Counted from the first letter of the stretch, positions 1 to 63,451 are shown. The stretch: 64,000 bases of DNA from Bilabrum cf. latius (GCA_965178125.1 OZ237736.1:1674001-1738000), one strand, 5' to 3'. Notes: a model not told the origin generated them from the sequence alone. Numbers and translations are program-made.

Positions 1-1035
1 GGTGCGAGCAGCCTTGGCTGGCCGCTCTGCGTCCTGCCCAGCTGAACCCCCCCCTTGGGTACCCTATGCAGTGGCTTCCTCCGAGCAGCCACCGCCAGTC
101 TCAACTGCACCTGCTCCTGCTCCTGCCGCTGCAGCCGCCGCCGCCTCTGCCCTCTTGCGTTTCTTGCCGATCCAAGGCCGGCTCCCCTCCCTATCATCTG
201 CCGTGTTCCCCACAATGGCCTTGGCCCTAAGCGTGGCAAGCACATCGTCCGCCTCCTGGTCCAGCCTGCCGAGGGCCTCATCCATGGCCACCTTCTCGCG
301 GCGGGCCAGTGCCTTGCGCTCCTTGTCGCGGGCGATCACCTCTGCGATCACCTCGCTGCGGCTCTTGCGAGGGGCATCATCTTCCTCCTGTTCATCGCTG
401 GGGCCCCTTTGAGAGGCACCTGCAGGGCCACTGCTGGCAGAAGCGGCCCCTGCACGCTGTTGTCGTTCCATCCAAGCCGGGAGCGGCTTCACACCACGCA
501 TCGGGGCTGCGCTCTGGGAAGCAGCCTGCCCCCCACCGAAATGAAGATTCGCAACCCAATCCGCACTGAGACCCTCGCGGTCGGTCTCTGCTGCTTTGTC
601 GTCAAAATCGAATCGATCGGCAGCTCCCCGCCCCTCCTGCTGCATTTTCCCGTAGTCATCGTCCCGCAGAGCTCTCCCAAAATGCGTCAATGGCTCCGCA
701 GGTCCACCTTCAGTGTCATCATCCAGCTAAAATTTCTACTTTTTCTTGCTGCGTCTTGCTCGCTGCAGTTGCCGCTGCCGTTCCCTCTAGGCTCTTGCAA
801 GCATGATCTCTTCCTAATCTGCGGCGGCATCGTCTGCTTTCGCACCAATCCTCCTATCATCAAACTGGTTTGATTTGCCAAGGGCGCGGTATTCCGGCAG
901 AAGCTCCCTCTTTCTTTTCTTGACAGCCTTGTCCCTAGCTGCAGCGACATTGCGGGACGACCCTCGAACTCTACGATTCAAGACATCAAATCGCTAATGC
1001 TTGTTGGCACGCGATTCAAATGGATTGGATGACAT
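1..1035 (-). CDS. NOP14: Nucleolar protein 14 (SSU processome), N-terminal part; runs off window start
   Basis: Reading TAG as sense gives one frame from ATG 1035: MSSNPFESRANKH*RFDVLNRR...LLPEYRALGKSNQFDDRRIG...EEIMLARA*RERQ...LTHFG...LHFGGG...KSRSEVIAEVIA, which are recognisable Nop14 blocks. In-frame TAGs at 994, 814, 787, 736, 727 and 64; no TAA/TGA. Confidence 0.9.
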
Positions 1036-1572
1036 AGTTTCTGGGAAGTTTGGCAGGTTTACTCGAGCGATTCAAGATAAATCCCCGGGAAAGGCAAGTG
1101 CCTAGCGGGGCACACCACGCGCGAGACGAGTGTGAGGAGTGCGCTTGTGATGGCACCAGATCAGATTTAGATGGAGTCCAGTGGCACGGTGGGCTGTCTT
1201 GTTGCATCCAGTGGACCCTGTACAGAGCCAATCATTACGAGACAGCAGGCAAGCGCGGTGACTGATATATTTCTAAATAGACCCCCGTTTCGATTGCATG
1301 ACCACGCTGCCACCACATTCTGGTACAGCCCATGGCCCTACACGGCCACCCAAATCAAACTGGCCCAACTCCCGTGCGACCTCCGCACGAGCTTGAACCA
1401 GCCATCACTAACTGAACCCGACTCGACAGTCGGATCCCCCCCATGACACCACAAGAGGCAACCCCCCAGCTGCCTCGCAGCCTGTGAACCTGGCCCGACT
1501 GTTAGGCCAGCTTCGCAGGCTCACAGAAACACTGGACTGGACCCTCCTCATCAGTTGCACAGCCTAGATTGC

Positions 1573-2203
1573 TCAGATGTGGCTAGGGTAGAGCATCACT
1601 CGCAGCGACGCGCCCATGGCGGCAGGCGGCAAGTTGCGGCGGAACTTAGCCCGAACAATGCCAGAGGTACCATGAGAACGAACAACCTTGCCCCAGATGA
1701 CCCTGAACTTGGTGCCATCGCGCTCGGCCTTGCCCTTATAGATGTACGCTACGCGCTTGCCAAGGTAGAACTTGCCCTCCTCGGTCGTCTCTACACCCTC
1801 TACCTTCACGAGAGCAGTGTGGGAGTACTGGTTCACCTTGGAACTGCAGAACGAAAAAGGCGCAAGTATTTATACATGCTGTGCATCAATGCTTTCTGGA
1901 ACAGCTGCATTGTAAAGGCTAAACTCAACAGGCAGTCTCACCCCTTGTATCCCACAAACTTCCCACGCACGTACAAACGAACGGGCTCCTGCGATAAAAC
2001 AAAATGGTATTTAGCGATTTGAGCTGCATTGGAAGACTGCGTGGCCATCTGAAGCCGTACAAGCGACAACCATCTACTGCAACAGCTCCATTTGTCGACT
2101 TTCGATGAGCTCAACAAAGCAGCTGGAAACAATCACCCACAAGTGCTACACTTCGTACTAAAATACATGCTTTAGCATCCTATCTTACCTTGCTGGCCGA
2201 CAT
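1573..2203 (-). CDS. RPL35A: 60S ribosomal protein eL33 (L35a); exons 2203-2189, 1988-1942, 1843-1573
   Basis: [38 protein letters not shown]...[12 protein letters not shown]...[27 protein letters not shown]...RVMLYPSHI. Two GT-AG introns restore the frame; TGA stop. Confidence 0.95.
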
Positions 2204-2416
2204 AATACCACGGAAATCCTATATATTGTTTCAGCGGTCGTCTCTGGTGATCGGATCACCCCTAACCCTACGTAACAAATCGAAAGTGCTGCTGCAGCAG
2301 TTGCTTTGTGTTTGCAGTTCGAGTAAGACAAGAGCATTGCAACAGTAGAATAGCATACCATTAAATATATTACAGCTATACGAACAACACAGAAAAAGGA
2401 TATCATTGATGCGACT

Positions 2417-3159: not shown

Positions 3160-6100
3160 ATGAACAGATCTCACAAGGGAGCTGCTTAGCGAAATGCTAT
3201 GTTGGCATCGCCACAGCGGAAGTCTGCAAGAACCCACCATTCGCTCGAAGACACTGCTGGTTTCGGTTCGCAGACTTCCCTCGATGCTACCGCAAGGCTA
3301 GGTTTACAAGCGGAACGGGATGAAATAGCGAGCCCAGTTGCTATGTTTACACCATCTGAGATGCGTATGGTAGACAGAATTGCTGCAGAAGAAGCCAGGC
3401 GTCGCGTTGATGGTGATCGGACACGAGGGCAGCGCCGAGCCTGGGGCGAGCGCGCCCCAGCAGAACTAGAAGTGCGCAGATCACTCTCTCGCCCATTTGT
3501 TGCAGCAGTCACGCACCGCTTTGATGCGGCAGCAGTTCGGAGCATTGCCGAGCAGCGAGTGGCGGAAGATCGAGAGGCGGCTCACTCGCGCGACAGGGCC
3601 GGATTCGAGCCAGAGGTGGCGCGGGGAATGGGCGGCGGCTCTTCGGGCAGGCGTGTGTAGCGCCCTGCGTCCGCTCGGCAGGCTCGCAGCGGGGCAGTAA
3701 AGGCCGGCCCAGACGCGGTGGGCCTGCTGTCCAGCCGACGTGGCGACCGGGAAGAGGGCAAGGAGGAGGAGGACACGTCAGTGCGCGACAGGGGAAAGGG
3801 CAAGGGCAGAGAACGCAGTCGCGCTTCATCGGCACGCAAACATCGCCCAGGCACTGCGGCTGGCCCCAGGCGGGCCGCGCCCCGGTCGGGCAGGAGGTCG
3901 CAGGCGGAGGGCGCGGCGGTGCGCCGGCTGGAGCGGGAGCTGGATCGCATGCGGGGGGAGGTGGAGCGGCTAAGGACTGCCCAGCGCAAGGCAGGGCTCG
4001 CGCGGGCGCACGATACTGCAAACAGGATCCGCGGCGGAGAGCCAGTTAGCGCGGTGCTGGCTGGCAGCAGCGGCGGCAAAGGTGCCGCCCTCGGTGCGTC
4101 CGCGGCTGCCAGTGGCGGGTCCTTCGATAGGCGCGTGGCGCGCGCCAGTGCGGAGAGCGCGTCCCGTCGACGCGAGGTGGAGAAGCTGGCTGGCGAAGCA
4201 GAGGCTTCCGAGGCACGGGTGGCGCGGCTGGAGGCGGAGATCCGGCGGGTGAGAGAAGGAGAGGAACGGGAGCAGGAGCAGCGAGGTGAGGAGGGCGCGG
4301 GGAGGGACGGGCGGAGAGAGGCAGGCTTCGATGGGTCGGATGGGCCCGAGTCAGGACCCCCTCTGCCGATGCCTAGGGCCGAGGGCCTGCCAGAGGACAC
4401 CCTCAGGGGGCGAGGCGGGGACTTGGACGCTGGGAAAGGGGGCCCACAGCATGGGGGGCAGGACATCGTAGCCTCGCAGTCAGACAGACCAGGAGACAGC
4501 ATGCAGGCCCACGAGCGGGACCAGGGGCCCGCAAGTGCCGACGTAGAAGGCGATCGCCGCCCCCGACCCGCGTCAGCCCCGAGCCACCGTCGGAGCAGCT
4601 TCGGCGGCTTTGATGAAGGGCCACGGATGACGATTGCCAGGCGTCGGATGCTGCAGGAGCAGCAGGAGCGAGAGAGGGAACTGGACGCGATGCTGAACCA
4701 CACGTTCAAGGCCAAGCCCATCCCTGAGAGCACTCGGCTGCCCCTGTTCGGACGGATCATGGAGAGGCAGCGCACGCGGCGCGAGATGGTGCACGAGGCG
4801 AGGGCTGCCGAGGTGGCTGGTCAGCTGCGGCCGTTTGCTGCTCTGGAGCAGCATGAGCGGGAGATGCAGCGCCGCAAGCTCCGGGAGCGGGCCGAGCTGA
4901 TCGAGCAAGAGACAAGGGCGCTCCGAGACAGCCGGCGGTTCAAGGCGAACCCGGTGCCCCCCACCACCCGAGAGGCGGACGCAGAGGCCAAGGCTCGGGA
5001 GGAGAGGGAGTCGAGACGGGCGGAGCGGGTCAAGGCGCGGGCCCAGGAGCTCGCGGCCAGGTCAGCGCTGCCCAGCCGCATGCAGCAATGGGAGGCTCGC
5101 CGGCAGGAGGAGGAGCGTATGGGCCGCCGGGCGCGAGAACGGGAGCAGCGGCGCCGACTGGGCATCGAAGAGCCCACTTTCAGGCCCGAGGTGAACCCAA
5201 GCGTGCCGGACTACGAGGCGATGCAGCACAAGTTCCAACGCAAGCTGCAGCAGCGGAAGCAATCCGCGGGTACCACCGTGCCGCAGCCCTTCGGGTTCGA
5301 CGAACCGGAGCGCGTGGCTGCCGAGGAGGCTCGCAAGCGGGCAAAGCGAGAGGCGGACCGGCTTCGTTTCGAGCGCGAGTCAGAGGAGCGGGCGGCGAGG
5401 GCACTCGGAGGCTCGGTGACTCTAGGCAACACTAGCAGGAGCAGGAGCAGGAGCAGGGGTGGCAAGGGGGGCACGAGGCCCATGTCCGCCACGCTGGGCT
5501 CTACCCGCATGGGATCCACGTGGGGAGGGGCAGGCGGGGCACAGGGCGCGCCCGATGCAGCCATGACTCGGGCGACGCTGCTGCGGGAGGAAGCTACTCG
5601 TCGGCGGGCGCTGGAGCGGCAGCGGAAAGAGCGGGAGGAGGCCGAGCTGGAGGAGGCTCGGCAAGAGGAGGCAGCGCGGCTGCGGGGGCAGTACGCTCCG
5701 ATGTTTGCCGCCATGGAGCGGGAGCGGCTCGGCGGGCGCACACTGGCGTGGCAGATGGACGAGGACACCCCAGAGGCGCAGGAGGCAAGGAAGCAGGCCA
5801 GGCGCAGGCAGGCGGAGAACACGAGGCAGCTGCGAGAGAAGGTCCGCAGGGCGGAGGCGAGGCGCACCCCGCTGGTGCTGCTGCAGGCTCGCGCCGCCGC
5901 ACAGGCGGCCAGCCGCAGACAAGGACTGCTGAACGTGGCGGCCACGGTGGCTGCAGGACACGAGGATGCTGCGCTGCGAGGTACTGTTCGGGGCAAGGGC
6001 GCCCGGTCCAAGGCAGAGGCGCGGGCATCGCTGGCGGGGCGGGCGGCATGGCGCGACATGGCAGATGCCGGTGGGCTGGGGGTGGAGGCCGAGGCTGGGC

Positions 6101-6252
6101 CCGGAGGGGCGCAGAGGGGCGTGTTTAGTGCAGATGATGCCGCGGTGATGGCTACTGCGGGGCGAGGTGAGGCCGAGGATGCGCTGCAGAGAGCCAGGGG
6201 GCGCATGCAGGAGCAGCGGGAGGAGGCAGACAGCAGTGCCGGCGGGCAGTGA
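3160..6252 (+). CDS. FAM161/UPF0564-family centriolar/ciliary coiled-coil protein
   Basis: ORFs 3199-3660 and 3718-6252 share a frame and are joined through TAG 3658. Motifs FKAKPIPEST.LPLF, FKANPVP, VPDYE.MQ.KF and TVPQPF are typical of FAM161. TGA stop. Start is 3160 or 3199. Confidence 0.75.
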
Positions 6253-8935: not shown

Positions 8936-9820
8936 TCATCGTCCACCGCCAGAAGCACCCCGTTTCATCTTGATCGGACCCGAGGCCGATTTCCATACCT
9001 CGTCACTGCCAGCATGACCGCCCTCGGCTGCTCCTCCGGATGCCGCAGCCTTCGCCTGATTCATCGGGTTCTCCGGACTGCGCTGCCACAGCTTAAAAAT
9101 ACGGTCTCTGATCTGGCTACGTTTCAATCCAGGCTCCTCTGCCCTGATGCGGTCCATTTCTCGCTCTTCAAAGGCACGGTATGCGGCTTTTCGTCGGCGC
9201 TCGGGGTGCTTGTCACCTTCCCTGGCTGCAGTTGCCGCCTCCACGCTCACTCCCATCGCATGTGAACTCATTGCCGCAAGGGCAGCATCCAGTCCACTAA
9301 CGCTAATGGTTTGGACTGGCTCTGGAGCACTTCCAGCCGGAGCTGACGCCGCCCTTGCCAGGCCTGCGGGAGCCGCGCACATGTCATCGTCTTTCGAGGC
9401 CTTGGATTTCTTCTTGCTCTTGCCGCTGCTGGTAGACTTCGTTTTCTTAGTTTGTAAAGGACCTAGCCCAAGTGCCCACATGGCTGCCTCGGCGCTAGCT
9501 TTCTTGCTCTTCTTGCTTTTTGAAGCGCTCTTTGGCGTGCCGAATCCTTTCGACTTGTCAGACTTTCGCACCTTTACATACTCTGCAGCTTCAGCATCGC
9601 GAAGTGCCTTTTTCTCAGCTTCGCGTCTCTCTCGTTCGCGGCGCTTCGCTTCGTCTGCTTCCTCTCGTCCCTGCTTTCTAGTGTTTGCGCCCCTGGCCCA
9701 AGCGGCACTCTCAGCATCTTCTGCTTCCCTTCTGCGCACAGCGTCTTTCTCGGCCTACGCAGCCGCTTTCTAGGCCTTGGCCTTGGCCCCTCTCGTATCC
9801 TCTGCCCATTTCTTTGGCAT
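8936..9820 (-). CDS. CCDC124: CCDC124/Lso2/Oxs1 family protein
   Basis: N-terminus MPKKWAEDTRGAKAKA*KAAA*AEKD is reachable only through TAGs at 9770 and 9755. C-terminal HPERRRKAAY.AFEE...PGLKRSQ...WQRSPENPMNQ; TGA stop. Confidence 0.9.
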
Positions 9821-9971: not shown

Positions 9972-11978
9972 TCACGGACCTGTACCTGTCCTCCTCCGCT
10001 TACGGGGCTGTTTGGGCTGCCATAGTGGGGACTCCGGCTCCCCATCGCTGCCTGTCTCGTCCACATTTACAGTACCAAACATGTGCACTGCAAGGGCTCT
10101 GTAGTCCACGGGTGCTCGCCTCTTTGGTCGGTTCGAAGACATGCCCACTATACCGCCGTCGTCCTCGTCCTCACCGGAGTCATCGTCTGACGAGTCATCC
10201 GACGTGTCAGTGCTTGAGCTCGATACACTGGCAGAGCCTGACTGCCTGCTGCCAGTGAGACTCTCCCCCTCCGAATCTGCACCCGAGCCGCGTCCACTCT
10301 CCCCTGCATCATCATCATCACCCAACCCTTGCTTGTCACCTCCTGTCTCCTCCTCTAGACCGTCCTCCTCTTCGTCACCCCCCTCCGAGAAGTCGCTTCC
10401 CTCGCTCGAATCAGACTCGAATTCTGCCGCCGATTTGGTTCGCATCGCCTCGAGTGATTTCTTGGCGGCCCCCCTAGACCGCTAGCGGGACCTCTCGCTC
10501 CGCTGGCTCCCTGCCGAGGACTGCCCCGGCCCCATTGCAGCAGCAGCAGCTGCTGCTGTTGCAGACCGAGAGCCACCGCCGTGCCCTCCCAGGGAGAATG
10601 GCACCGGCAGATGGGGTGCCGCTGGCCCTGCCTATGCCTCGCTCCTGAGCCCCGCCCGAGGAGAGCTGACAGCCACCGGACTGCCTACCAGCCGACCCAT
10701 GGTGGCCTTCTCCACAGCATCATGGGCGCTCCACCGGCCCAAATCTCGGCCAGAGGACTTCGACCCTCCGCGTGCACCTGCCTCGTCCGAATGGTCCAGC
10801 CCTCCCCGCTTCAGCTCGCCCCCCAGCACCTCGATGGCCTCCTGGATCGTCTCCGCCCGCTTCAGCTCGCCCCCCAGCGCCGCCTCGAGGGCCAGCAGGG
10901 CGTCTCCCTCCGCCTCGCACAGCGGACACAGCCAGTCCTCGTCCTCGTCGTCCAGGGAAGGAGGGTCCATGCCCACCGGGAGCGGCAGGCAGTACAGGTG
11001 CCAAGCCCTGTCGCAGCCCGCCCCGTCGCACAGGAGCAGCTCGTCACCCTGGTCGTCGTCGCCGTGTCTGCACGCACAGCATTCGATGCGAGACACGTGC
11101 ACAGAACCATCGGCTTGAGTCCTGCTTGCGAGAGGCACAGCGCTGCTGGAGCTGGACTGCGAGCTGCCGGCAGCGCCGGTGGCCGGCGACGATGAGTTCG
11201 ACAGTGGCTGCGGCGGTGGATGTGTCGCTCCTGCGGTTGCCCCTGTTTGGCGCTCCATGGGGTCGTGGGCAGATGCTGATATTGCTAGCTACGGAAAATC
11301 GCTCCTCAGGTCAGTCAGCTGCTGCAGGGAAACGAGGACCTGCCGTCGAATCCGTTCTAGCGCCTGGACAGCCTGGTGCACGCTAGCGTCGAGGTATCTT
11401 CGGTTCTAGATGGACTTCGATTGGGGGGGCTGTACTGCTTTTCCAGTCTTTGCTCCTTCCTTCCGGCTGTCCTGATCGACTTTAGACGAACTCGTCGCAC
11501 CCTTGGTTCGTGACACCCATCGCATGCGGGCATAGCCGCCACCGGCAGGGCTGTTCGATGCAGGCAACCCAGCTGGCCATTGATCGGAAGCACTAGACCC
11601 ATTACCACTTGATTTGTTCCAGCGCGGCGCACTGGCAGACAGAACCGCATGGAGCTCAAACTCTGCGCGACGACAGCTATCAATGACGCGGTCAACAATC
11701 GGATCCCAGGGGAAGTCGGACTTGGCTCCTCTACACTATCTGGAGAGCCGTATCGCTTTCTACACAAGAGTAAGCTAAGCTGAGGCCTCCTTAGGCCTGT
11801 TCCGCTTTGCCCCGATCTTGGGAGGTTGAATGCGGAGCACCTGTTCAGAGCTCGTCTTTGGACCTTGGTTCGCCTATCGGATGTCATCACCTACCCACCC
11901 GTGATAACCAATACCTTCTTTATCTAGAAGCGCATAGTTTGGCCTTTGATTGGCCCTTTTTCGGCGGCCAGATGCCAT
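9972..11978 (-). CDS. PHD-finger chromatin protein (~668 aa) with acidic tail
   Basis: Single frame from ATG 11978 to TGA 9972 through TAGs. C4HC3 finger CCAC...LLLCDGAGCDRAWHLYCL...WLCPLC, reminiscent of the HAT3.1/PRH-type PHD. Confidence 0.8.
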
Positions 11979-12299
11979 GTTGTGCTCGCTTTCTCTAGTG
12001 AAGGACCTTTACCTGTGCAACCCAACACACACAACGGCAGGCCCTGTTTCTCGATTCTACTTCGTGCTGCCACAAGCAAGATGGGTTCAAGTTGTCAGGT
12101 TGAACTGTGCTGTCACACTGTGCGACCGCAAGTTGCGACGGCCACATCACAGGGCGCACGGCAATGTGCTGCATTTTTTCACGGAATGTGGTGTGCCCGA
12201 ATCTGGAAGCACTCCAGCTTGACACGCGCACCGTCGCAACCATTAAAATGCTTCGATTCGTATTGGTATTACGTAGAGCTTAAACAGCCAGGATCGCGA

Positions 12300-21205: not shown

Positions 21206-21488
21206 AGATGCCGGCTGGATCCGTGGATCAGGCTCCGAGTCCGAGCCTACTAAATCTAGTAGGACCTGGACTAGGCCTAGCCAAAACACCCGCCTGCCAT
21301 GCCTGAGTGTCTCAGTCCTACCTGGTCTCGAAGGCTAGCTCGGCCCAATTGTGGCCGTTGTAGGCTGTTTGTGTTCGCCAGCCAGGTGCCAGAAGGGATC
21401 AAGCGTGTTGGTGACACTGCTGGCTGCCCGCGAATGAAAGGACAAGTCGCCGGTGCAGGTGCACAGCATTCGCCCCGCCGGGTTGTCT

Positions 21489-22195: not shown

Positions 22196-22277
<82 letters not shown>

Positions 22278-45203: not shown

Positions 45204-45835
45204 TTTCACGACGCACAAGGAAAGCTCGGAGACCAGCGCTCAATGTTGGCAGGAAACTGAGCTAACAGTCCAGCTGCGCGAAATAGAAGATGCCAACTCG
45301 CTGTATGACTCAACTTGATGCCCCAAAGAACCTTTGTGCACTACAGTGCTGTGTTTGACAGCACTTGCTGGACGCCGTCGACGATGATTTTCAGGGCTTG
45401 CTTGCTGGCTGGTGCGATGATTTGTTGGATTGCCGTGAATGGTGCCAGTACGACGTGAGGGGCACAGCGAAAGCAGCCACCCTCAAGCTGTGCGACTCGC
45501 ACGCGTCATGGCAGACCAGGGATTCGTTTAAAGTCTGGCGCCATCCAGGATCGGGCCAAGGCCGCTACACAAAGCAGAAACAGTTCGATTGGGTGGGCTT
45601 ACTAAGCTTGAGAGGTCACAGGAGCCGTTGCCCGAGGGTTCTAGCGGTCCGTGACCGCTGAAGCGCTTGACAGCGTCACATTGATGAATGACGTGGGCAC
45701 TAGCGTGTAGTGCTATGACGTTCCATGCGAGTACAAAATTAAAATAAAAGCACCCAAAGCATTCACGATGCGAAGCGACAACATCGCGCGCATGCAATCT
45801 CTTTGAGCTGCCCGGCGCTCAAGCGCATGAGCGCA

Positions 45836-46359
45836 TCACTTGTCCGCCATTTTCTCCACGAGCAGAACAGGCTTTAGGATGTTGCTCTTGTTTGTCTCCA
45901 CCACTGCACCGTTGGTAACCATTTCTTCCAAAATAAAGTGGGCCTTCTCGAGGTTGAACATTATGTCAAGCTCGCACACGTTCTCGAAGTACTTATCCAG
46001 GGTCTCCACGAAGGCGTGGATAAACTCCAGCATTCCGAGCTCGTTCTGCGGAAAGATTTATGCTAGTGCAGTTAAAAAACATTGGTCCGGAAAGTGCATT
46101 GAGCGACAAATCAATACGTATCCATGCTTACCTCTTCCTCAGGATCACAGCCCACAATGAAGTATAGGGATGCATACCTACGATAAACTACCTTGATTCC
46201 CCTGTACTCCATGAATGAGCATAGGCGTTCACTTCGGCCCAAGCAACGTCGAATGATCTCGCTCTCCACAGCAGTCCGCTCTTCGATTGTCTTAAACTCG
46301 TAGTAATTAGCTAGGCGCGTTTGCCCTTGCTTGTTAACCATCAAGATGAATTTAATCAT
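45836..46359 (-). CDS. AP4S1: AP-4 adaptor complex sigma subunit; intron 46131-46046
   Basis: [20 protein letters not shown]...[21 protein letters not shown]...[45 protein letters not shown] stop. Confidence 0.9.
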
Positions 46360-46547
46360 CTTAGTGAGATGACCCAAGAAAGCGCTGTGCCAGCCATGGG
46401 ACGGCTCTTGGAAAAACCCACGATTTTCTGAATACTGCACGCAACAATATCATCATAATCGTATTTCCGTTCTGTTGCCAGATTCTTGGCTTGCAAGGAG
46501 GTAAACAAGCCCATAGTTGTGTAGAAACCACGAGTGGTTCGTGAAAT

Positions 46548-49500: not shown

Positions 49501-52500
49501 CCGCTGCACCGCCTACAACAAAGAGTGGGCAGCGCGCGAGGAGACGGAGCGTTGCTGTGGCCGGATACCGATACAACCCTATCACACCGCTGTCTGCTCG
49601 TGATGGATTCGGTGGTGGCTAGTCACTCCTGAAGGGAGCTTCTACGTCTCGCGGTGGCGGCAAGGGCTTCAATAAATGGGGATCAAAGGAGGCTGCCGGT
49701 GGCAGAGGAGACGCCCCAGCATCGGGTGCAGGTGCAAGCGAGCGGCCGGGTGGGGGCCCCAGTGGTGCAGAGCTACTCGCGAAGAGTTTAACTCGAACCT
49801 AGTCTGCTCCCTACTTGCTTCCGAGCGTTCGAGAGGACCCGCTGCTCAAGTCGTAGACTGCAGTTAGTCGGCACGAGTATGAAATGAGGCAGAATCGTTT
49901 CGGCCGCCTTTGGCGCACCAAAAACCACAGCCATGCAAAGCATGGCATGCCCCACGCTGGGCATGCCAAGGGCAAACGGCGCAGCATCTTCATCAAAAAC
50001 GACGTGGAAGTCGGAATGGAGGGCGTTACGCAATCCCCCCGCATTGACCACGAGCTTCAAGTGAGGCCGGGTAGGGGCCATGGCGGCGGTGTAGATAGTG
50101 TCGGATACTCTAGCCCAGATGCTGCGGCTGGAGGTGGTGCTGGGCCTGCCACTTCAGTTTCGGGCAGCAGTGCTGGACCACGGGGCGGACGAGTGGTCGG
50201 CCTTCAGGAGAAGAAAAGGGCCGAAACTCGCCGGAAGAAGCAGCAGGAGACGCAGGCTAAGATTCGTGAGCTGTGCCGAGCAACGCAGAAAAAGAGGATG
50301 CGCCTTTTCAAGGGCTACGAGGGTCAGTTGGACAGCAAGACGCTCCAGGTGCTCATGGACCAGGGCAGGCTCCCAATCGCAGCAGAACGTGCAGCGGCTC
50401 AAGTTGTCGACATGGAAATTTTCAGCGGTGGGGGAGGGAAAGACGATGCCAAGTCAACGGACAGTGACGCGAGTGCCAATGGCAACGCAAGCCCGCCAGG
50501 TCATGTTACAATGGAAGGACTTGGGCCAGCTTCACCTGGAGCTGGCAGTCGAAATCTGGGCGGCAGCAGCGGCCTCGGATTAAATTCTTCCTTGAAAGGC
50601 AAGCTTGGAGGCTCCGGTGAGCTCAGCAAGTCCAAGCAGGTTCTATCCCGGGCTGAGAGTGAGGCGAGACTTCACAAAGGTGGCCTCAGTCGAACGAAGG
50701 ACTTTGTGATGGTCCGCCACGAAGCTGCTGCCGGAGGTGCGGATGGCGGTCGAGCAATGAAAGGAGTCGTATTCACTTCGAACACTGATTCGCTCAGTCT
50801 TGTGGGTGGCTTGAGAAATGCGCAGCTGAACAAGAGGGGTCAGGGCTAGGACCAGCTGGGAGGCATCGGGGCAACCCATGTAGAAGCAAGCGATGAAGAC
50901 TCGTCTGACGACGACGATGCCAGTCTGGACAGCGCTAGCGAATGGGCTGGCGATGGTGGCGGGCGCAAGAGCGGCATTAAGAAGAGCAGAAAGAATAGGG
51001 TCGAGTCGGGCAGCGACAGCGATTCGGACAGCGACAGCGATGGCGAGGAGATCGTCGCATTGGATGGTAATGACGATATCAACGACGTGTTTGACGAGCT
51101 AGAGGCCTACAAGCACAAGCATGACCCCTCGCTGGACGACCTATCTAAAGAGGAAGAAGCTAGGCTTGCCGTCGCTTTGGCCAGTCTGTCTGTGGACGAG
51201 ATGGCAGCCACAAAAGCAGGTGAAGTACCTCGGGCAGCAGATGCTGCCAGGCGTGGGGAGCAGCTGGAAGGCGACACCGTCGAGCAAGAGAACGAAGATG
51301 ACAGCGATGCTGACGACGTTCACGAAGCAGGATCTGCTGACGGCCTCCGCACTCCGCCCTTGGTGGAGAAGCAAAGTGATGACAGTACGCCTCTCTCTCC
51401 CGCTGCGAGCAGCGACGCAGCAGTTGGATAGGAAGCAGTGAGCAGGATGTAGGCCAGCAAGGTGGAGCAGAAGCATGCCAAGCAAAGGGCGAGAGAGGCT
51501 ATTCCCATGCGGACAGTGCGAAACAACTGGGGTGGTGTGGACCCTATACGAGGCCTTGTGTGGGCTGCTGCTGAGCGCTAGGGCAAACCTGACTACATGG
51601 AAGATCGTTTCCTTGCTGTACCCACCGTGTACGATCGGCGCGATGTGGGAGGGGCACAGGAGCCAGACTGGGTCAGGGCTTGTGGTGGGGCTGCCACATT
51701 TGCTGTGTTTGACGGCCACAAAGGGGACACTGCGTCTGAGTACCTGCGACGTGGCTGGTAGCGGAAGCTGCGAGATGTGCTTGCGAGACCTGAGTCTCGG
51801 CCACCATAGTTACCTCCGATGTCAGCTCGTGATAGCAGCCGTGGCGTAGATGGCGTCAGTGCAGCAACAGGTGGTGCTTTCTCCCCTCGACCGGGCGACG
51901 AGGAGGCCGCTCCCGAGCCTGACTTGCCGATTGGTGTGGCCAGCAGTGGAGACAGCATGGCAAGGGCTCTTCAAGCCGCGTGTACTGAATTGGATGGCGA
52001 GTTGCTGGCTCACTGCAAGAAATACGATGTTGGAGACGGCTCCACTGGAACTGCTGTGGTTTTTATGAGAGATCCTGCAGGTGTAGCGGGTGACGAGGCC
52101 GGTTTGCTGTCTACAGCGAAGGCTCCACTTCGAGTTTGGTGTGCAAACGTTGGAGACACTCGGGCAGTACTTAGTCGAGGTGGCATTGCTGTTGAACTCT
52201 CCAAGGACCACGGCACGGATGATCCCGAAGAGGTCGCTAGGGTACACAGCGTTGGTGGGGCGATCAAGCAGCGCAGGCTGCAAGGCATTCTGGCTGTGAC
52301 TCGAGCTTTCGGTGACATGGAGCTCAAGGTTGACTACGAGGGTCGATATGTTGAGGACCTTACGGGGCCACCACTTATTGCAATGCCGGATGTCGTGCGT
52401 CGTTCCATTGATGCGGAGCGCCCAGAGGATGAGGCCGAAGTGGTAGACGATGATGATGACCCTGATGAGTTGGATCGTGTTGGTAGGGACGCCAGGAACA

Positions 52501-53018
52501 GCTCCGCGTCTGCTCGGGACCAAGAGCTAGGCGTCGATCTCACGGCTGGCCGAGTAAGTAGGGGGCGTGATAGCTCTCTTAGTGGCGAGAAACTGGGTCC
52601 AACAGAGGACCGGGACGAGAGCAATTTCAACTTGCTGTCTTCAAAGGCGGGTGCATCGAAATTGACCACCGAGGACAGTCCGAGCAAGGGTGCAGGAGCA
52701 GCCATGGCATCTAGGTCTAAGGAATCGGACGGAGCAGATCGAGGCGTGCTTGACGGATGGCGCACAGCTACAGGGTCTGATGAGTTCGTCATCATAGCAT
52801 GTGACGGTCTGTGGGACGTCATGAGCAGCCAGTAGGCCGTGAACTTCGTACGTCGACAGCTTGCTGAGCACGGTGACCTTGTGCGAGCTGCCAATGAGCT
52901 CGTGCAGAAATCACTTGAGCTATTCACCATCGACAACGTCACAGCAATCATCGTTGGTTTCATGAGAGAAGGTGCTGGCGAGCCTGCAGTTGCTGGCGAC
53001 AGCCTGATGACCGTGTAA
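46548..53018 (+). CDS. N-acylated cNMP-binding domain + CaMKK/SnAK-like kinase + PP2C (PPM) phosphatase fusion, 2156 aa
   Basis: One intronless frame with only TAGs. MGCGSSK start; F*PGSYVVHQGEKGDSFYII.KGEV...GHFFGEMAL...PRNANV (cNMP); IGQGAFGKV, YAVK, HRDIKPSN, DFG, GTPAFQPPE (kinase); R*GKPDYMEDR, FAVFDGH, ANVGDTR, LSKDH, LAVTRAFGD, IACDGLWDV, DNVT (PP2C). TAA at 53016. Confidence 0.9.
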
Positions 53019-53101: not shown

Positions 53102-53133
53102 CCTAACCCCCCCTAACCTAACCCTAACCCTAA
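53102..53133. repeat. Short degenerate (CCCTAA)n tract, inverted relative to the downstream TTAGGG arrays
   Basis: cctaacccccctaacctaaccctaaccctaa seen directly. Confidence 0.85.
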
Positions 53134-53143
53134 ATTCTCCAAT

Positions 53144-55613: not shown

Positions 55614-58600
55614 TCATGTCCATTTCTCGTCAAACCCCCAGCCTTCTTGCTCAATTGCTGGGATGTGTACCCACCGTGGAGCGGTGCCAAGAAGAAGGAT
55701 CTCGATTTCGCCACGTGCCCGTGAAATATCTCGCTGGCCCATACCACGCAATCCAGCGCCGGGCACTGATGGCGCCATGTTCTGGTCACCACGAATTCCT
55801 CTAGGTCGTGACAGTGCTGAAGTCGGCGGCTGCGTGATGGCGCTGGAGGCTGCTCCCAGCGGCGGCTGCAACTCGGCAAGGCCGTCACTACCAGCCTTGT
55901 CGGTAGGCATCTGCAGCAATCGACCGATTGGATCATCATCGCTGCCAGCCCCACTGGATGCTGATTCCGAGGCAGGCCTCAATGGTTCCGATGCCCTGCT
56001 GCCGATCGCAGTTCGGTTGAATGCGTTGGCCTCCGTTCGTTCTGCGGGACTCGAGCTCGCATGCTCGCCGGATTGCCGCATGTGCCTTGATCGCTTCTAT
56101 TGCCCTTCTTCCTCATCGCTCTCATGGCCGGGCCAAATATGTCCCAACGAATCTAGGCTATGCTCAAGAGCAGAAGTAGTGGTGGATGCCTGTGACAGGA
56201 TGCTGTCGCCATCGTCAAGAGGACGAGCACGTGTGTACATCCGAAGAACCTAGCTGCAGTGTTGCGATTGAGGTATGTGATACGCACGCCAAAGCTCGTG
56301 CCTCTGGTCGGCACTCACGCCTGCTTCTCCTGCTTCTGCACGTGCTCGGGCCACCATGGATCGGACATCTCCCACAGCTTTCAAGCTTTGAGCTAGTGAC
56401 CTGCGTACCAGCCCCTTGCCTGCTGCCTTGTAGTACGGGGCTTCTGATAGTGCAGGCACTACTGATGGACTACAGGGCAGGTTAATGCAGAGACCAGCGC
56501 CGTAGTAGCCTACATCGATGACACGACGCAGTGACCCATCCTACCTGTTCAGCGCCCCTCTGAAGACTTGAGGACAATCAAAGCCTGGGTTCATCCACTT
56601 GAAATGATCTAGCACGACAGACTCCACGTGCTGGGCAATGGTAACGGCAGGCTGGGCGGTTCTTGGTGGTGGCGAGACGTCGAGCACTGTCTAAAGTCCA
56701 GATCGTGCAATCGACGGCTGGCCTCCCCTTGGTCGCTTCGTTCCAGGCAGAGGGGGCCGCTGCAACCGATCGGGCAGCAATACTGCAGACCCAATCACAC
56801 ACGCAGGTAAAAGCCACACTGATACCATACGACGAAACTGCTCGTCTGCGAGGGATGGCTGTCCGTTCTGCCTGGTGCCTACGACAGCACGAAGAATTGA
56901 AGCGACGTACGAGGTCCGGACAGATGACTCGGCAGCAAGCTTGCGTTGCATGGTCCAGGATAACGATGTTATCAACGCATAGCCTAGCTTGGAGGCCCTA
57001 GCAGATGTCGTGGTCGCCAAGTCACCCCTGAGATTCCCAGCGTTCTTAGAGCCGCGCCACATTGCGCCTGCATCTGGCCTGGGACTGAAGGCAATCTTGG
57101 ATATGCACATCTGCAAGCCAACTAGTATTGCACTCCTTGAGCACCTGAGCCGAGATAGGAGCAGCCCGTACAGTGCTACAGCTAGGCTGCCCCTTGCTAG
57201 CATTCCTTTCCGTGTGCCACTGCGAAGGTGGAGCTTTGCCAGGTGCATTTGCGCAAGGTAAAGCTTCCGTAGCTGCTGCTCCATGACTACAGCGTGGGAC
57301 ATGTCTGTAGACTTGGCAAAGTGCAACAATAGCCTGGACCGCTCAGGCAGTCGAGACAAAATGTCAGCCTGCACGTCAGCCCGTACCATAGCACGAAAGC
57401 CGGTGATTCCGTTGTTCACACCGCTGATGCCCAACTGGAAGTGCTCGTCACCTTGCGTTGATACGAGTCCAGAAAGACCATACCTCTCGGAGATCCGAGA
57501 GATCTGCCATGTCATGCCCAAGCCTTCTGCCAACGCACACAGGCTCCAAGACGTTACCATGACCTCACAGACGGCAAGCACAGTCCACGAGTTCAAGAAC
57601 GTACCGTTGCACCCCCCAGCCCTGACTGACTACACCGCATTTCCGATTTGATCAATGATGGCGGATGCAACCGCCATTACATTAGACTGCTCAGGCATAC
57701 TGCTAGCAGATTGCAAACAGTCACGGACGCTGGACCACTCCAGTGTCGAAGGCCCTAAGTTTCGAAGAACTGGCCTAGTAGCGGGAAGCCACGTTACGGC
57801 AATTTGCTCTGCAACAACCTGAGACCATGCATCTGTCCGTAGAGCCACGCAGCCTTCCATACAGCATCTGCTCATCGATGCAGCTAGCGCCCACATCGCC
57901 GATCGCTGATACGTGGGAATCCTGTCTGCACCACAGACAGCTGCTACGAGCAGTCTTTCGATTCTGCAAAGTGCCCGACGGAGTGTATACCTGAGCATTT
58001 CCAAGTGATTCATGATGGATGTCTTCTTCACGACCTCCACGAAGCATTGCGAGAATGGAGCCACTGACAAATGCTCGATAGTGTCGGCGCGATGTTCACT
58101 CCGTAACTGTCCGTACTGCAGTTCAGCTGGTAGCACTACGGAGGCCAGCATCAGACTCATGGTTGACGCGGGTACATCGAACTCGCCCCTGGTCGATCCA
58201 AGGATTCCTGCAGTTAGCCTTGCATAGCTTTGAGTGAATGCCGTTTGCAGCCCAAGGTATATCCGCCGGCGGGTTGGCAGTGCATCCAGAGCTGCCTAGG
58301 CTCGAATCATGCTTGCAGTTCTCGAACTCAAAGTCGATGGAGCATGTGCATCCGATTCAGCGAAGTGGCGAACCTTAGAGAGAACTCGTCGGCGAAACTG
58401 GTCATATGCAGAGTCGTGCGCCCCTGGACTAGGCTGAAATGCTCGGAATGCTCCAGGCTGGTACAAATGCAGCTGAGATGACAGCATGCAGCCAAGTGAC
58501 ATAAATGAAGGCATGCCGTAGTCGTTGCCAGTGTCATTCTCGGCTAAAACACGTCGGTGCACGGAAAGCACGTCACCCCAGGATAGCGTAGCTGGAAGCA

Positions 58601-61600
58601 TTCCTTGGAAGGTTCCGGCGTACTCTCCAACGGACGCCAGCGCCGCATATGGACGAATTCGCTCTTGCATCACGGCATACCGTGCGTGTTCGAGCCGTGT
58701 TCCGTGTATGACTCCTCGCAGCAACTGATCCCGACAGCTATGCATGTACTGAACTGTTGCTGGGTTTGGTACAGCAACTGACACTGAGCGTTCACCACAC
58801 ACCTCAAAGCCTACGCCAAAACTGCAGTACATGGCCATATCCGCATCCTGTTGCGGCCACAGCTGTCCGTACGGATGAATTATGGCTGCGAGATCTCTCA
58901 TACCTCGGCGTTGATGACGTCCAGTCCAAGCAGGTGCTCGCGCCGCGCCGCGGTACAGCTGTTCCCGAGCACTGCGTGTCAGTGTTTTCCTGCTCACCTT
59001 CCTGTTTGTAGCGCCTGACGCCGATCGCTTGCCATCTCCTGTTGGACCAAACCATTCACCTCTGCGGCCTCTGGCAAACTCCTCATCGCTCTCATCCATT
59101 GCGATCTCCCGAGCACGTTCTTCTTCTGCCTGCTGGGCAGCCAAGTCTTCATGAGCTTTGCGAAGCTGTCCCTGTGCTGCCTGTTGCAAGAGAGACATAG
59201 GATTGCATGCTTTGCAGCCCACTCGCTAGGCGTAGAACACGGAGCACCTGGCTATCTGTCTCATCAGCAGTATCATGAGGAAGCAGTTGTAGTGTGATAC
59301 TAAGTGCAGATGATCAAGTAAAGAGTCGTGACTCAAAGACCACTCGTAGGAGCTGCTGTGCTATGCTTCATCATTCTCCACGCCACGTTGCTTAGCGAAG
59401 TCGTCGTCCTCATCCACGTCCACGTCGGTGTCGTCTGAATCGCTCTGCGCAGCAGCACCACCGCTTATTCCCACGCCTTCATTCTGCTGAGCCTCGTCAG
59501 AATCAGAGTCAGAGTCACTCAACTAGTCAACGGCTGGGTAGCCAAGCCACCGTACCCAATGAAATGCGCACGAAAGCAACCGGGATGGGCTTCTGTGCAG
59601 GGTGTGAGAGCCAGGCCAGAATCTACTTGTCTGTGGACCAGGTCCACTCCCAGCGTGTGCGAGCGACGAATGGTATCCACCGGCTTGGCCTCCACCACGT
59701 TGGACACGTACCACTAGCTCTGGACCTAGCCAGTCGAGCCTGCTGGCAGCAGCCGTGAGCCCGCAGCCGAAGACGTACAGCACACAGCTTCGGATCACAT
59801 CCACATGGGAGCCCTGGGTCCAGAAGCCTTCATGCATACTCATTTCTACAACACCCTCAGTATCAAGCGTTTGCTGCAAGGACTGAGACGGAGGTTCGAA
59901 CGAGTCTATCAGGTCACGGCAAAGATCAAGCAATCCACTAGGTACAAGAATAGATACCGTAGCAGCACCAACATCGAAAAGTTGAACGTGGATGTCAGCA
60001 GCGAGTCCGCGCAGTATACGAAGCGTTGGCAATTTCGACGATTGATCGTTTGCGTTTTCTGCTTGCGTGCTGACAGCCCTACTCCACAAGGTTCCAGAAT
60101 GCGGCACCACTGAAGCCCACCCTTCCCTTGCAGCCTTGTCGACATCACGATGGAACTATCGGGTGCACTCCTACTCAATTAGTTTGCTATACTTGGTAAC
60201 ATCAGACAAGGCCCCGGCAGCCAACACCCGGATGCTTGAGCCACCAAGTCCATTCGGACACTTCTGCTGCAGATCGGTCACCTTGGATCGTAAGCTATCA
60301 ATCTGCTCTTGGTCGCAACGACGCTCAGCCCACAGCATCGCAGTTTGCTAGTCTTTGAAAACGTCATCCCCGTCATCAAGGAATGCTGTCCATGATATGC
60401 GCATTGATCCGCCGGCAGGCGGCCGCTGTGCGTGCGGGGCGCGAACTACCACGCCAGTTGAGGGTGATTGAGACAAGCTGGTATACGACGGAAGCAGCGA
60501 ATCTGAGTCATGTACACCTAGAACGCCATCTGTGATCCAGTCCAGCAGTGCATGGTCCGATCCATCAAGCCCCAGTGGGCTTGCCAACGTGTGAGGCAGA
60601 AAGTGGTTCGAAGTCTCGTCTGCACTGGATCCATTGAGGTCTGCGACAGCTCCAAGAACAGTGAACCCATCTAAATCAAATGCAGAATCGCTGTGACAAG
60701 ACAGCGGTACGTTTCTGGAACCTGGTGCAGACTTGAACGCTCTATATATCGCAGGCTGGTCCGGAATTGTGCTGTCCATTGATCTTCGCGGAGAGGCCGA
60801 GCTTGACAGGCCTCGGCTTGCACTCGGAGTGACGGGCTAGCTGGATGTTCGACTCTCTTTGACAGCGACTTTCTTCCTTGCTGCGGCACGAGATCCTTGC
60901 CTTCGGACGGCGGGCAATGGAGCGAACCCAAGGCACATGCCTGCCAAGAAGTCCAGGGGGGATGACAGGTGCTGTAGAGGTCCAGACTCCGTTTCTGGTT
61001 GGGACATCTGATCGAGCGAGCTGCCAGTGGCCTAGCTGGCACCACGAGAACTACTGCTGTGGCTGCTTGCGGCGCCTGACGACTGTCGACGGCGGCTTGG
61101 CGAGCTGCCAGTGGCCTAGCTGGCACCACGAGAACTACTGCTGTGGCTGCTTGCGGCGCCTGACGACTGTCGACGGCGGCTTGGCGAGCTGCCAGTGGCC
61201 TAGCTGGCACCACGAGAACTACTGCTGTGGCTGCTTGCGGCGCCTGACGACTGTCGACGGCGGCTTGGCGAGCTGCCAGTGGCCTAGCTGGCACCACGAG
61301 AACTACTGCTGGGGCTGCTTGCGGCGCCTGACGACTGTCGACGGCGGCTTGGCGAGCTGCCAGTGGCCTAGCTGGCACCACGAGAACTACTGCTGGGGCT
61401 GCTTGCGGCGCCTGACGACTGTCGACGGCGGCTTGGCGAGCTGCCAGTGGCCTAGCTGGCACCACGAGAACTACTGCTGTGGCTGCTTGCGGCGCCTGAC
61501 GACTGTCGACGGCGGCTTGGCGAGCTGCCAGTGGCCTAGCTGGCACCACGAGAACTACTGCTGGGGCTGCTTGCGCCTCGTGACGATCGTGCACGAGTAG

Positions 61601-62292
61601 CCGTTTCAGGAAGTTCGAATCCCCGCATCTCACTGTGTGCTCCTGACATCTCTGCTCGGGCAGCGAGAGCAGCTTGGGCAGGCAGATATCCAGTTGGCGC
61701 GTACTAGCAGCAATCAACCAGCGATACGTATGTATGCAGATCTGACTCCTTAATCAAGTCGTCAATTAATTGTTTGTGAAATATTTCTGCATCAGCGCTG
61801 GGTGTATCGTAGACCGTGAGAAGATCGGCCAGCATGCCATTTTCGATGACATCGCTTGAGACTCCAAGTTCTCGAAGGCACTCCTAAATCTCTTCGACTT
61901 CGATGCCATCCATCTGCGATATAATAAACTGAAGTTCAATATACTGCGGTTGCTGCTGAGATGTACTCCTATTATCCCAACTGTAGCTCTGGCTTACTTC
62001 AGCTGGCGGATTCGGCTGCTGGGGATCGAAAGTGCGGATCATCTCTAATTTCTCTTCGGATATCTGCGTAACAATGCAACATAAGTATGTATTGAGCTGT
62101 CTGCGGCGGATAGCAAATCAATACTGCCCATATACTCCACATAGAACTCACTGGAACGTGCTACCAAAACAGAGCTCGACGATTCATTGCTCGCTGCAAT
62201 CTTTTGAGTACTTTGTGCATAGATTGCATCTAGCGTGTATCATCTAAGACTTTACATGCATCGTCAATGGAACACAAGGTTTCGTCAGACAT
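55614..62292 (-). CDS. Giant orphan protein (~2200 aa); exon 62063-55614 plus probable exon 62292-62152
   Basis: Seven tracked ORFs (55614, 56250, 56691, 57630, 58296, 59523, 60348) share one frame. I read the gaps and upstream region: ~6.45 kb with ~20 TAGs and no TAA/TGA until TGA 55614. A GTGAGT (62151)...CAG (62064) intron links it to ATG 62292. Confidence 0.8.
61016..61575. repeat. 84-bp coding minisatellite, ~6.6 copies (SPSRRRQSSGAASS[H/P]SSSSRGAS*ATGS on the minus strand)
   Basis: Near-identical 84-bp units, each with one in-frame TAG in the giant-ORF frame. Confidence 0.92.
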
Positions 62293-62503
62293 CTTTAGGC
62301 CGGTTCTGGCGCAAGCAATACTCAACGGAATATTGTGCGCGTCCCCCTCGTGGGGGGCGAGTGCCACCAGTGGGGGGTGCGTGCGGCGCCGCGCTCGACG
62401 GCGGAACACAGTATCTCAAACTGCAAGTGGTCTCGAACATCAAGATTTTTTTGTTTGCTTGCTGGCATTTTGTTTCTCTTCTGCCAGGCAGTGTGAAAAA
62501 TAT

Positions 62504-63451
62504 ATGTCAGACCATGCATCACCGTGGGCATTGCTTGGATTGAAGCCTGTAGACTTCGCAACGGAAAATCTCGCAATCCGCCGAGGCTTGTGTATCGCAG
62601 CTTGCGGCATATCGGTTGAAACCGTGCGGTGCATCTTTTAGGATGGTGCCTATGTATCTGCGCGATAGCGTACATCACTTCATAGTGTAATGCAGCGTAT
62701 TTGTGCGACAGATGACGGCAAAGTGCTGCGTGTCGACCCAAGCTTCTTGCTTGCGGAAACAGGCCAAAGACACTTGCGTTATGCTATCAATAGTATTAAA
62801 GAGAAGTCTGACGACGCAATCAGACGTGCCATGATGAAACTGGCTCCACAGAATGGGTTGGCGTTGCATGGAACCGGCAAGCACGCACCAAGCTCGTCGA
62901 AGCACGTCGAAAAGATGGCATGTGCTACTGCAGCTGAAGACGACACTGCAAATACTCAAAAGGGCTCATACCTGAGATCATCTGCCTCTGGGTGTGCAAG
63001 ATCGGAATCGAAAGGCAATGTTGGCTCAGGCTCCAGCCAGTAGCACCGGCGTGCACGGCGGGGCTAGTCCAAGGTCCACGGCCAGAAGATGCCGACTCAA
63101 GCCCAAGTATACTCGTGGCAAGAGGCAGTACTGCATCTGCGAACGCTCTGTGACGCATGCGAGCAGAAGGCTCACCTGACCGGAGCGGAAGCTCGCAGCT
63201 TGGTCAGATTGGCTAGCAGCAGCATCGAACCAGCTCTCGGGCGTCTAATGCAACTGGCGCGCGCAGACAAGTCTAAGAGGTCTGTGCCACTTAAGCGGAC
63301 TGCTACAGCGAGAACGAGCCTATCGCGTACACCCGTCGAGTTGCCCAAAAGGAGGAGAGGGGAGAAAAGGAAATTGCTCGCTGGGGATGCGACGCCATCG
63401 AAAAGGTGTAGGAGCATCCCTGGTGCAGTTTCGTTTCTTTCAGGGAAGTAA
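62504..63451 (+). CDS. Orphan basic protein (~315 aa), divergent from the giant ORF
   Basis: ORFs 62267, 62690 and 63089 are co-frame, separated only by TAGs (62639, 62666, 63041, 63065); TAA at 63449. NLS-like PKRRRGEKRK. Start ATG 62504 is inferred. Confidence 0.6.

Follow-up and report, generated by a model that had tools for sequence, protein, structure and literature searches.

The present analysis concerns the genetic code of a stretch of 64,000 nucleotides from Bilabrum cf. latius (GCA_965178125.1 OZ237736.1:1674001-1738000; the whole stretch is called the window below), in which the codon UAG, a terminator in the standard code, very probably specifies glutamine (Gln, Q). The window is the end of a eukaryotic chromosome, and a (TTAGGG)n telomere can be read directly in the sequence at 63694-64000. 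The G+C content is 55–64% along the window (the overall figure quoted is 58%), and open reading frames (ORFs) are crowded on both strands, with 20–300 bases between long ORFs; the chromosome arm measures 64 kb or more and carries 25 genes. Introns are sparse and short: three of 86–94 nt, all of the GT..AG type on the gene strand, are spliced out in contigs of three sequencing runs, and a fourth is likely in a phosducin-like gene. The genes and ORFs on which the following argument is based are given below, with lengths in amino acids (aa), with in-frame TAG triplets counted under read-through of TAG, and with Pfam scores in bits.

1..1035, minus strand: N-terminal part of a Nop14 gene, cut by the beginning of the window; of 6 in-frame TAG, 5 are covered by the Pfam match (Nop14, 127.9 bits, aa 3-273, TAG scored as X).
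3160..6252, plus strand: FAM161A/B-like gene; 2 in-frame TAG; ends with TGA; Pfam FAM161A_B, 151.7 bits.
8936..9820, minus strand: CCDC124/LSO1-2-like gene, in which codons 17 and 22 are TAG; ends with TGA; Pfam Ccdc124, 86.7 bits.
9972..11978, minus strand: PHD-finger protein gene; 8 in-frame TAG; Pfam PHD, 27.1 bits.
12081..17006, plus strand: ORF of 1,641 aa with a weak Tubby-like C-terminus; 12 in-frame TAG; Pfam Tub, 20.9 bits, below the cut-off.
17328..20210, plus strand: gene for TRM1, tRNA (guanine26-N2)-dimethyltransferase; 6 in-frame TAG; key site 18141-18143 (aa 272).
20291..21469, minus strand: peptidase M50B-like gene; 4 in-frame TAG; Pfam Peptidase_M50B, 76.9 bits.
21489..22748, minus strand: NKAP gene; 3 in-frame TAG, one of which (21741-21743) lies within the Nkap_C domain.
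22779..25502, plus strand: ORF of 907 aa, whose status as a gene is less sure; 13 in-frame TAG, the densest occurrence; weak Pkinase match, 25.9 bits, below the cut-off.
31434..32400, plus strand: phosducin-like/thioredoxin-fold (PhLP3-like) gene; TAG at 31518 and 31713.
32295..35846, plus strand: AAA-ATPase gene that also encodes a long coiled coil; 11 in-frame TAG including the pair TAG-TAG at 33738-33743; ends with TGA; Pfam AAA, 73.3 bits.
36232..38331, minus strand: ORF of 699 aa, for which the Pfam search found no family; 3 in-frame TAG; a transcript intron (38688-38776) lies upstream.
38836..40251, plus strand: cyclophilin gene extended by a long C-terminal tail; TAG in frame at 4 positions (39553, 39565, 39823, 40039); Pfam Pro_isomerase, 81.5 bits.
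40381..43032, minus strand: ORF of 883 aa with 15-aa tandem repeats; 12 in-frame TAG.
43301..45289, minus strand: eIF2A gene of two exons with an intron at 44770-44863; one true in-frame TAG at 44158; ends with TAA; Pfam eIF2A, 151.1 bits.
45728..46375, minus strand: small gene like that of an adaptor-complex sigma subunit, with an intron at 46046-46131; no TAG; ends with TGA.
46548..53018, plus strand: gene of 2,156 aa combining cNMP-binding, protein kinase and PP2C domains; 18 in-frame TAG; ends with TAA; Pfam Pkinase 196.7, PP2C 131.8 and cNMP_binding 52.4 bits.
55614..62042, minus strand: ORF of 2,142 aa that belongs to no known family; 22 in-frame TAG, including 7 in tandem repeat units.

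When TAG is read through, 25 non-overlapping long ORFs on both strands amount to 18,280 codons and contain 164 in-frame TAG; that they contain no TAA or TGA in frame follows from the definition of the ORFs. TAG was present at each of the nine coordinates named in an earlier note on this DNA (51579, 39565, 18141, 47691, 21741, 52833, 31713 and the pairs at 33738 and 46590; NKAP, being on the minus strand, shows it as CTA). We compared the codes by collecting stop-to-stop ORFs of 150 aa or longer. The standard code gives a total of 30,024 aa with a longest ORF of 863 aa, and read-through of TAG gives 54,549 aa and 2,167 aa, respectively; the corresponding values are 36,223 aa and 863 aa for TAA, and 59,665 aa and 891 aa for TGA. 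Because TGA is the commonest stop triplet in this GC-rich DNA, its read-through yields many spurious ORFs without joining real genes. In the 6.5-kb gene at 46548-53018, the numbers of TAG, TAA and TGA are 18, 0 and 0 in the coding frame, and 13, 5 and 31, and 22, 17 and 75, in the other two frames.

Pfam matches cross TAG positions in 11 ORFs (Nop14, FAM161, CCDC124/LSO1_2, PHD, TRM1, M50B, NKAP, AAA, cyclophilin, eIF2A, and the ORF with cNMP, Pkinase and PP2C). Twelve genes backed by Pfam or by RNA-derived contigs comprise 8,783 codons, in which TAG occurs 65 times, CAG 232 times and CAA 77 times; UAG thus makes up about 17% of the Gln codons if it is counted among them, or about 7 TAG per 1,000 codons. 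The base after these 65 TAG is C in 21, G in 19, A in 16 and T in 9 cases, giving no strong context. Part of the 164 TAG are non-coding, as exemplified by two in the eIF2A ORF, which sit in a misread stretch upstream of the intron. The distribution over successive fifths of the ORFs (53, 30, 27, 20 and 28) is enriched in the first fifth, with 53 of 158, which suggests that ORF starts have been placed too far upstream. In the N-terminal part of the ORF at 55614-62042, seven near-identical Ser/Arg-rich units of about 33 aa carry one TAG each at the same place, suggesting one ancestral TAG copied with the repeat. A further region at 53064-53810 on the minus strand is a microsatellite, consisting of about 85 (Thr-Leu)n units in one frame followed by three or four copies of a unit of about 45 aa; this 'ORF' is probably not a gene, and its 5 TAG should not be counted as coding.

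An important check was to examine whether these TAG are retained in RNA, which the earlier note had called for. Seven sequencing runs from three studies contain at least 0.89 of the sampled window words, against 0.07–0.12 in runs X8-X15, and four runs (X1, X5, X6 and X7) were compared with the window over 33019-53018 (20 kb), in the form of contigs and not of raw reads. Run X1 behaves as genomic DNA, with an even depth of 17–19 (35 in one repeat-containing bin), long contigs and introns kept. The contigs of runs X5, X6 and X7 are about the size of genes, their depth varies widely (2.6 to 321; 3 of 30 bins in X6 are without cover), and they skip 38688-38776, 44770-44863 and 46046-46131, whose borders read CT..AC on the plus strand and therefore GT..AG on the minus-strand genes. 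The joint 38687/38777, the eIF2A joint and that of the sigma-like gene are each found in all three runs, and on the basis of these three spliced joints the contigs were taken as RNA-derived. None of the four runs shows a differing letter, an insertion or a deletion with respect to the window. The X5 contigs span 34 in-frame TAG of five genes with 0 differences:

gene at 46548-53018, plus strand: 18 TAG, in the single record 46494-53018 (0 differences, 0 gaps)
AAA gene, plus strand: 8 TAG, in the contig 33258-36052 (an RNA-derived contig starts near 32562)
cyclophilin gene, plus strand: 4 TAG, in the contig 38926-41289
ORF 36232-38331, minus strand: 3 TAG, in the contig 36048-38687
eIF2A gene, minus strand: 1 TAG

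These 34 triplets are thus unaltered in spliced contigs, indicating that splicing does not remove the codon, that the bulk of the RNA is unedited there, and that it is not an assembly error; since contigs drop rare variants, a minority edited form would go unseen. The alternative that the TAG are untranslated, being assembly errors, pseudogene mutations, tiny introns or RNA-edited sites, is accordingly hardly conceivable: four runs from three studies agree letter for letter with the window across 20 kb, the triplets are kept in contigs from which introns of 86–94 nt have been removed, and close relatives described below carry sense codons or TAG at the same places. In addition, the frames are broken by TAG alone and never by TAA or TGA, unlike random damage. 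Taking together the location inside conserved domains and the retention in RNA-derived contigs, we regard it as nearly certain, from the sequence data at hand, that UAG is a sense codon, in agreement with the earlier note.

The other two stop triplets behave differently. The 24 complete ORFs end with TGA (16) or TAA (8), one further ORF being open at the window start, and the 12 supported genes, with 8,783 codons, contain neither TAA nor TGA in frame. The stop of the 2,156-aa gene is at the same position in the window, where it is TAA, and in L001, a metagenomic contig of a relative, where it is TGA. TAA therefore ends genes and is never in frame, so UAA has not been reassigned. A separate matter is whether UAG could be Gln within genes and also a context-dependent terminator, the situation found in Condylostoma or karyorelict ciliates. 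Our ORFs were extended through every TAG, and a true TAG end would therefore mimic a short TAG-bearing tail; in 6 of the 25 ORFs, 2 to 30 codons separate the last TAG from the end. However, no gene requires a TAG terminator, and the C-terminus that could be compared with a relative is the one just mentioned. Furthermore, the last TAG of TRM1 (aa 899) is in a column filled in 97% of homologues, with 61 codons after it, and the cyclophilin ORF stays open for 227 codons beyond the TAG at the conserved C-terminal motif. Such an ambiguous code is therefore quite unlikely in our judgment.

We next consider the residue specified by UAG, for which homologue columns, Pfam scores and comparison with close relatives were used; residues are given below in one-letter code. 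At TRM1 aa 272 (18141), 97 of the 120 homologues have Q and 2 have E, so that the earlier view of this site as a Gln position holds. For PP2C, 150 representative homologues were aligned. Q is the most frequent residue at site 61 (51579; 9 of 30), for which a relative has CAG, and site 479 (52833) is divided equally between Q and E (46 each of 149); these had been described in the earlier note as a Gln position and a Q/E-type position, respectively, and both descriptions are borne out. When every column with enough residues was taken in, favourable or not, the weighted log-odds over all 10 usable columns came to +5.1 bits for Q, -9.2 for K, -9.2 for R, -10.0 for S, -10.0 for E and -13.5 for L, with the rest lower; Q is the sole residue with a positive sum. 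A homologue search for Nop14 gave 2 matches among 8,000 scored candidates, too few for column statistics.

For the Pfam scores, X, Q, E, K or L was put in place of TAG in seven proteins, so that only four of the 20 residues were tried, and nine families were summed (Nop14, LSO1_2, TRM, Nkap_C, Pro_isomerase, eIF2A, Pkinase, PP2C and cNMP_binding). The summed bits are 1169.6 for Q, 1165.9 for K, 1163.9 for E, 1156.6 for X and 1151.7 for L. Taken singly the families disagree:

TRM: Q 271.0, K 269.7, E 269.1, X 268.8, L 268.1 bits
Nkap_C: Q 126.5, E 126.1, K 125.3, X 124.4, L 123.3 bits
LSO1_2-like: K 24.8, Q 24.3, X 22.0, E 21.7, L 21.6 bits
PP2C and cNMP families: slightly better with E or K

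Protein collections contain fragments of relatives of the 2,156-aa protein, at least three in number:

relative 1: 94–99% protein identity, contig of 11,688 bases
relative 2: 73–90% protein identity, contig of 5,888 bases
relative 3: 60–68% protein identity, JGI contigs including L001 (metagenome)

In 14 site-by-relative comparisons at TAG sites of the window, the relatives have Q in 7, S in 3, and R, N, P and V in 1 each, where the V site reads E in separate BLAST alignments; the closest relative has Q at 3 of 3 sites, and the non-Q residues fall in the kinase insert and in linkers. The cNMP site at 47691, which the earlier note had listed among normally Gln positions, is in part supported, with Q in a 94% identical relative; a 62% identical relative has R there, and the Pfam score is not decisive. 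The fragments of the relatives were called with the standard code and hence end at their own stop triplets. Their 11 distinct ends correspond in the window to Q in 7 cases, to TAG in 3 and to P in 1, with Q accounting for only 3.6% of that protein.

L001 could be compared with the window at the DNA level, over 777 aligned codons with 534 identical residues. TAG is present at 9 positions, and at 6 of them it is exchanged with CAG or CAA: four TAG of the window face CAA or CAG, and two TAG of L001 face CAG of the window. At the remaining three positions, TAG is opposite AAT, CCT or GTG. The exchange is reciprocal at 52830-52835, with CAG-TAG in the window and TAG-CAG in L001. A Gln-type codon is kept opposite 4 of 7 TAG and opposite 11 of 17 CAG/CAA of the window in this alignment, and this similar conservation indicates that TAG evolves like a Gln codon. 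The occurrence of the same signature in at least three diverged relatives shows that the code is shared by a clade and is not peculiar to one strain. In the metagenome scan, one of the 80 loci (L001) was such a close relative, and no clear gain from TAG read-through was found in the 49 loci longer than 4 kb (L001 excluded). The metagenome of L001 also yielded L080, a eukaryote-like contig of 20,153 bases with 71.6% GC and a 2,058-aa ORF under the standard code; TAG read-through leaves this ORF at the same length, though some ORF length is added overall, and L080 is from a different organism, which probably uses the standard code.

Gln is thus supported by three independent lines read from sequence comparison, i.e., homologue columns, Pfam sums and the exchange of TAG with CAG/CAA in relatives, the last of which is the strongest, and the same lines uphold the residue proposed in the earlier note. 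Various results weigh against it. Among the columns, TRM1 aa 343 has S in 85 and Q in 16 of 120 homologues, aa 899 has E in 45, L in 26 and Q in 14, and aa 82, in a poorly conserved stretch, has W in 24, F in 22 and L in 19; PP2C site 121 has H in 15 and P in 9 of 35. Solved-structure homologues, which are few and distant, have E at the TAG sites of cyclophilin (4 of 4), of PP2C (5 of 5 near-identical chains) and of NKAP (2 of 2), and R and K at those of CCDC124; Nop14 aa 14 corresponds to Q in human and K in yeast, and the other four sites to E, T, N and N in yeast. The Pfam margin of Q is small, 3.7 bits above K and 5.7 above E, with 16 residues outside the comparison. Only one fragment end of the relatives was checked as TAG in the DNA (the shared end of P0123 and P0273, in L001). 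In the 15-aa repeats of the ORF at 40381-43032, TAG is present in 2 units and TGG (Trp) in 5 at the same position. Runs X5, X6 and X7 are labelled only 'RNA?', one of them 'probably DNA', and their RNA origin is taken from the splice joints. Finally, the decoding machinery is one that we infer as a whole, by analogy with the cases of PMC5304391.

Concerning the repeats, TAG and TGG differ by one transition, in a low-complexity region where drift may account for the difference. The residues of the solved homologues (E, K, R, N, T and Q) mark polar positions that appear compatible with Q; they are not decisive and alone would not select Q. The cyclophilin site at 39565, which the earlier note had taken as normally Gln, does carry TAG and is by itself ambiguous between Q and E because of the E in solved homologues. 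The NKAP site at 21741 had been regarded as a Q/E-type position, which agrees with the E of its solved homologues, and it is likewise ambiguous when taken alone.

These E and K residues bring in the alternative that UAG is sense with a different polar meaning, either glutamate or lysine. Precedents for UAG = Glu exist in peritrich ciliates, an oligohymenophorean ciliate and Blastocrithidia. The tie at PP2C site 479, the predominance of E over Q at TRM1 aa 899, and the Pfam sums of K and E, which both exceed that of X, are in its favor together with the solved homologues. Against these stand the almost exclusive Q over E at TRM1 aa 272, the column sums, in which K and E are both negative, and the Pfam sum, highest for Q. 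The relatives never have K or E at the 14 compared sites apart from the alternative alignment of the V site, both of the relative's own TAG face CAG of the window, and no fragment ends at E or K. A Glu or Lys meaning is therefore very unlikely. The evidence also speaks against decoding of UAG as pyrrolysine, because of the frequency of TAG over unrelated genes and its correspondence to Gln. Among the single-residue candidates tried, Leu falls below X in the Pfam sum, has the column sum of -13.5 bits, and was found in none of the 14 comparisons with relatives; Ser has a column sum of -10.0 bits and does not replace Gln in the closest relative. With UAG most probably read as Gln, the nuclear code as a whole is likely, with only slightly less assurance, to be one in which UAG is Gln and both UAA and UGA are stops, which is the meaning of NCBI table 15.

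This code should be distinguished from the UAR = Gln code (NCBI table 6; UAR denotes UAA and UAG), which is used in many ciliates, hexamitin diplomonads, some ulvophyte algae and aphelids. The window shares with these organisms UAG = Gln and differs in that TAA is not sense and ends 8 of the 24 complete ORFs; a UAR = Gln code was rejected because no in-frame TAA occurs in the supported genes and TAA read-through leaves the longest ORF at 863 aa. For some organisms with the UAR = Gln code, tRNA-Gln(CUA) is documented according to PMC5304391. The UAG-only-to-Gln code is already known, and the present lineage is probably an additional case. Iotanema spirale, a fornicate of Metamonada, reads UAG as Gln and keeps UAA and UGA as stops (Panek et al., 2017, PMC5304391; PMC9161772); its eRF1 has the substitution T32G in the GTS motif, and a tRNA-Gln(CUA) was predicted for it (PMC5304391). 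The window is like Iotanema in that UAG alone corresponds to Gln, UAA is still a stop, the organism is probably a non-ciliate flagellate and the same mechanism is predicted. It is unlike Iotanema, an anaerobic metamonad for which a transcriptome only is available, in its 58% GC, its gene-dense chromosome end and its TTAGGG repeats, the two being compared by description only. In ciliates, Protocruzia tuzeti and two phyllopharyngean lineages have UAG alone as Gln (McGowan et al., 2024, PMC11687900) and share the codon table of the window. Rhizaria sp. exLh with UAG = Leu and Scotinosphaera with UAG = Ser (PMC5304391, PMC11687900) are similar in that UAG alone is reassigned with UAA as a stop, and differ in the residue. 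PMC11687900 names, as nuclear codes splitting UAG and UAA, those of Iotanema, Rhizaria exLh, Scotinosphaera, Protocruzia, some phyllopharyngeans and one oligohymenophorean ciliate.

As for the mechanism, UAG would be decoded by a tRNA-Gln with anticodon CUA, pairing with UAG but not with UAA; according to the discussion in PMC5304391, no anticodon other than CUA reads UAG without also reading UAA. In its simplest origin, a duplicate of tRNA-Gln(CUG) would have had one anticodon base changed and would be charged by the normal glutaminyl-tRNA synthetase, and eRF1 would have lost or weakened its recognition of UAG, i.e., its grip on the G of UAG, as with T32G in Iotanema. The third base of stop codons is read by the eRF1 motifs GTS, NIKS and YxCxxxF, in which such a change would lie. 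Within the 64-kb window, the tRNA gene search found no tRNA gene, the Rfam scan gave no family match, and eRF1 is not encoded. For the two founding non-ciliate cases, PMC5304391 describes the tRNA(CUA) as only predicted and points to eRF1 substitutions, the genomes being unavailable.

The nearest named TRM1 with full coverage, among the 120 listed of 127 matches, is that of Cafeteria roenbergensis, with 41% identity, and no metamonad or ciliate is found among the named proteins of these 120. In a FastTree phylogeny of TRM1 (121 rows), the window stands beside Cafeteria roenbergensis and one unnamed protein, a grouping flagged as a meeting of long branches, and this placement gives a hint only. 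Ciliate macronuclear DNA has telomeres of the G4T2 or G4T4 type and is AT-rich, with gene-sized chromosomes in Phyllopharyngea. The window, having TTAGGG repeats, 25 genes on at least 64 kb and 55–64% GC, is without these macronuclear features. The earlier proposal of a non-ciliate with an independent origin of the code is thus plausible on the basis of the telomere, the gene-rich arm, the GC content and the Cafeteria-nearest TRM1, with the reservation that a single-gene placement is weak. The proposal that UAG = Gln holds genome-wide is supported within the window and the fragments of relatives, and its scope is limited to these.

In the literature searched, UAG = Gln was not reported for any stramenopile or other GC-rich flagellate, and a report under the name of the organism may have been missed. 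We tentatively suggest, at a little under an even chance, that UAG-only-to-Gln arose here independently, as a so far undescribed event, in a clade of free-living flagellates that may be related to stramenopiles and has three or more diverged members. One member of the clade appears to be in culture, with an assembly reaching the telomere and with RNA data. If the independent origin is true, this would be the first such non-ciliate in which tRNA(CUA), the eRF1 change and the discrimination between UAG and UAA can be tested directly; codes giving these two codons different meanings are very few, and a compact, well-assembled genome with RNA data would allow the predictions on tRNA(CUA) and eRF1 to be checked directly. 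Gene calling with the standard code splits these genes, and such fragments of relatives are already in public protein collections; consequently, as long as the code is not set, annotation, orthology and phylogenomics of the lineage will be in error.

Several genes of the window need additional comments. The gene at 31434..32400 is presumably of the PhLP3 type, a name that we take from the earlier note, with no family match behind it. A probable GT..AG intron lies near 31879-31952, where the frame shifts after GTAAGC...CGCAG, beyond the cover of the compared contigs, and exon 2 runs past 32270 in another frame; the ORF list therefore mis-draws the end of this gene and the start of the AAA ORF (32295). 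The AAA gene may be ATAD3-like; only p97/Cdc48-type ATPases were matched among solved structures with its AAA domain. The small gene at 45728-46375 (minus strand) looks like an adaptor-complex sigma subunit, a family read from the translation and not from a search match; its contig depth in X5 is 279, and its approximately 142 codons contain no TAG and end with TGA. Proteins of 1,692–2,746 aa with PP2C at the same end as in the 2,156-aa protein are present in public collections, indicating that the architecture of cNMP-binding, kinase and PP2C domains extends beyond this lineage. Just inside the telomere, at 63480-63693, about three tandem copies of a C-rich unit of about 60 bases can be seen by eye, and this unit looks like a subtelomeric repeat.

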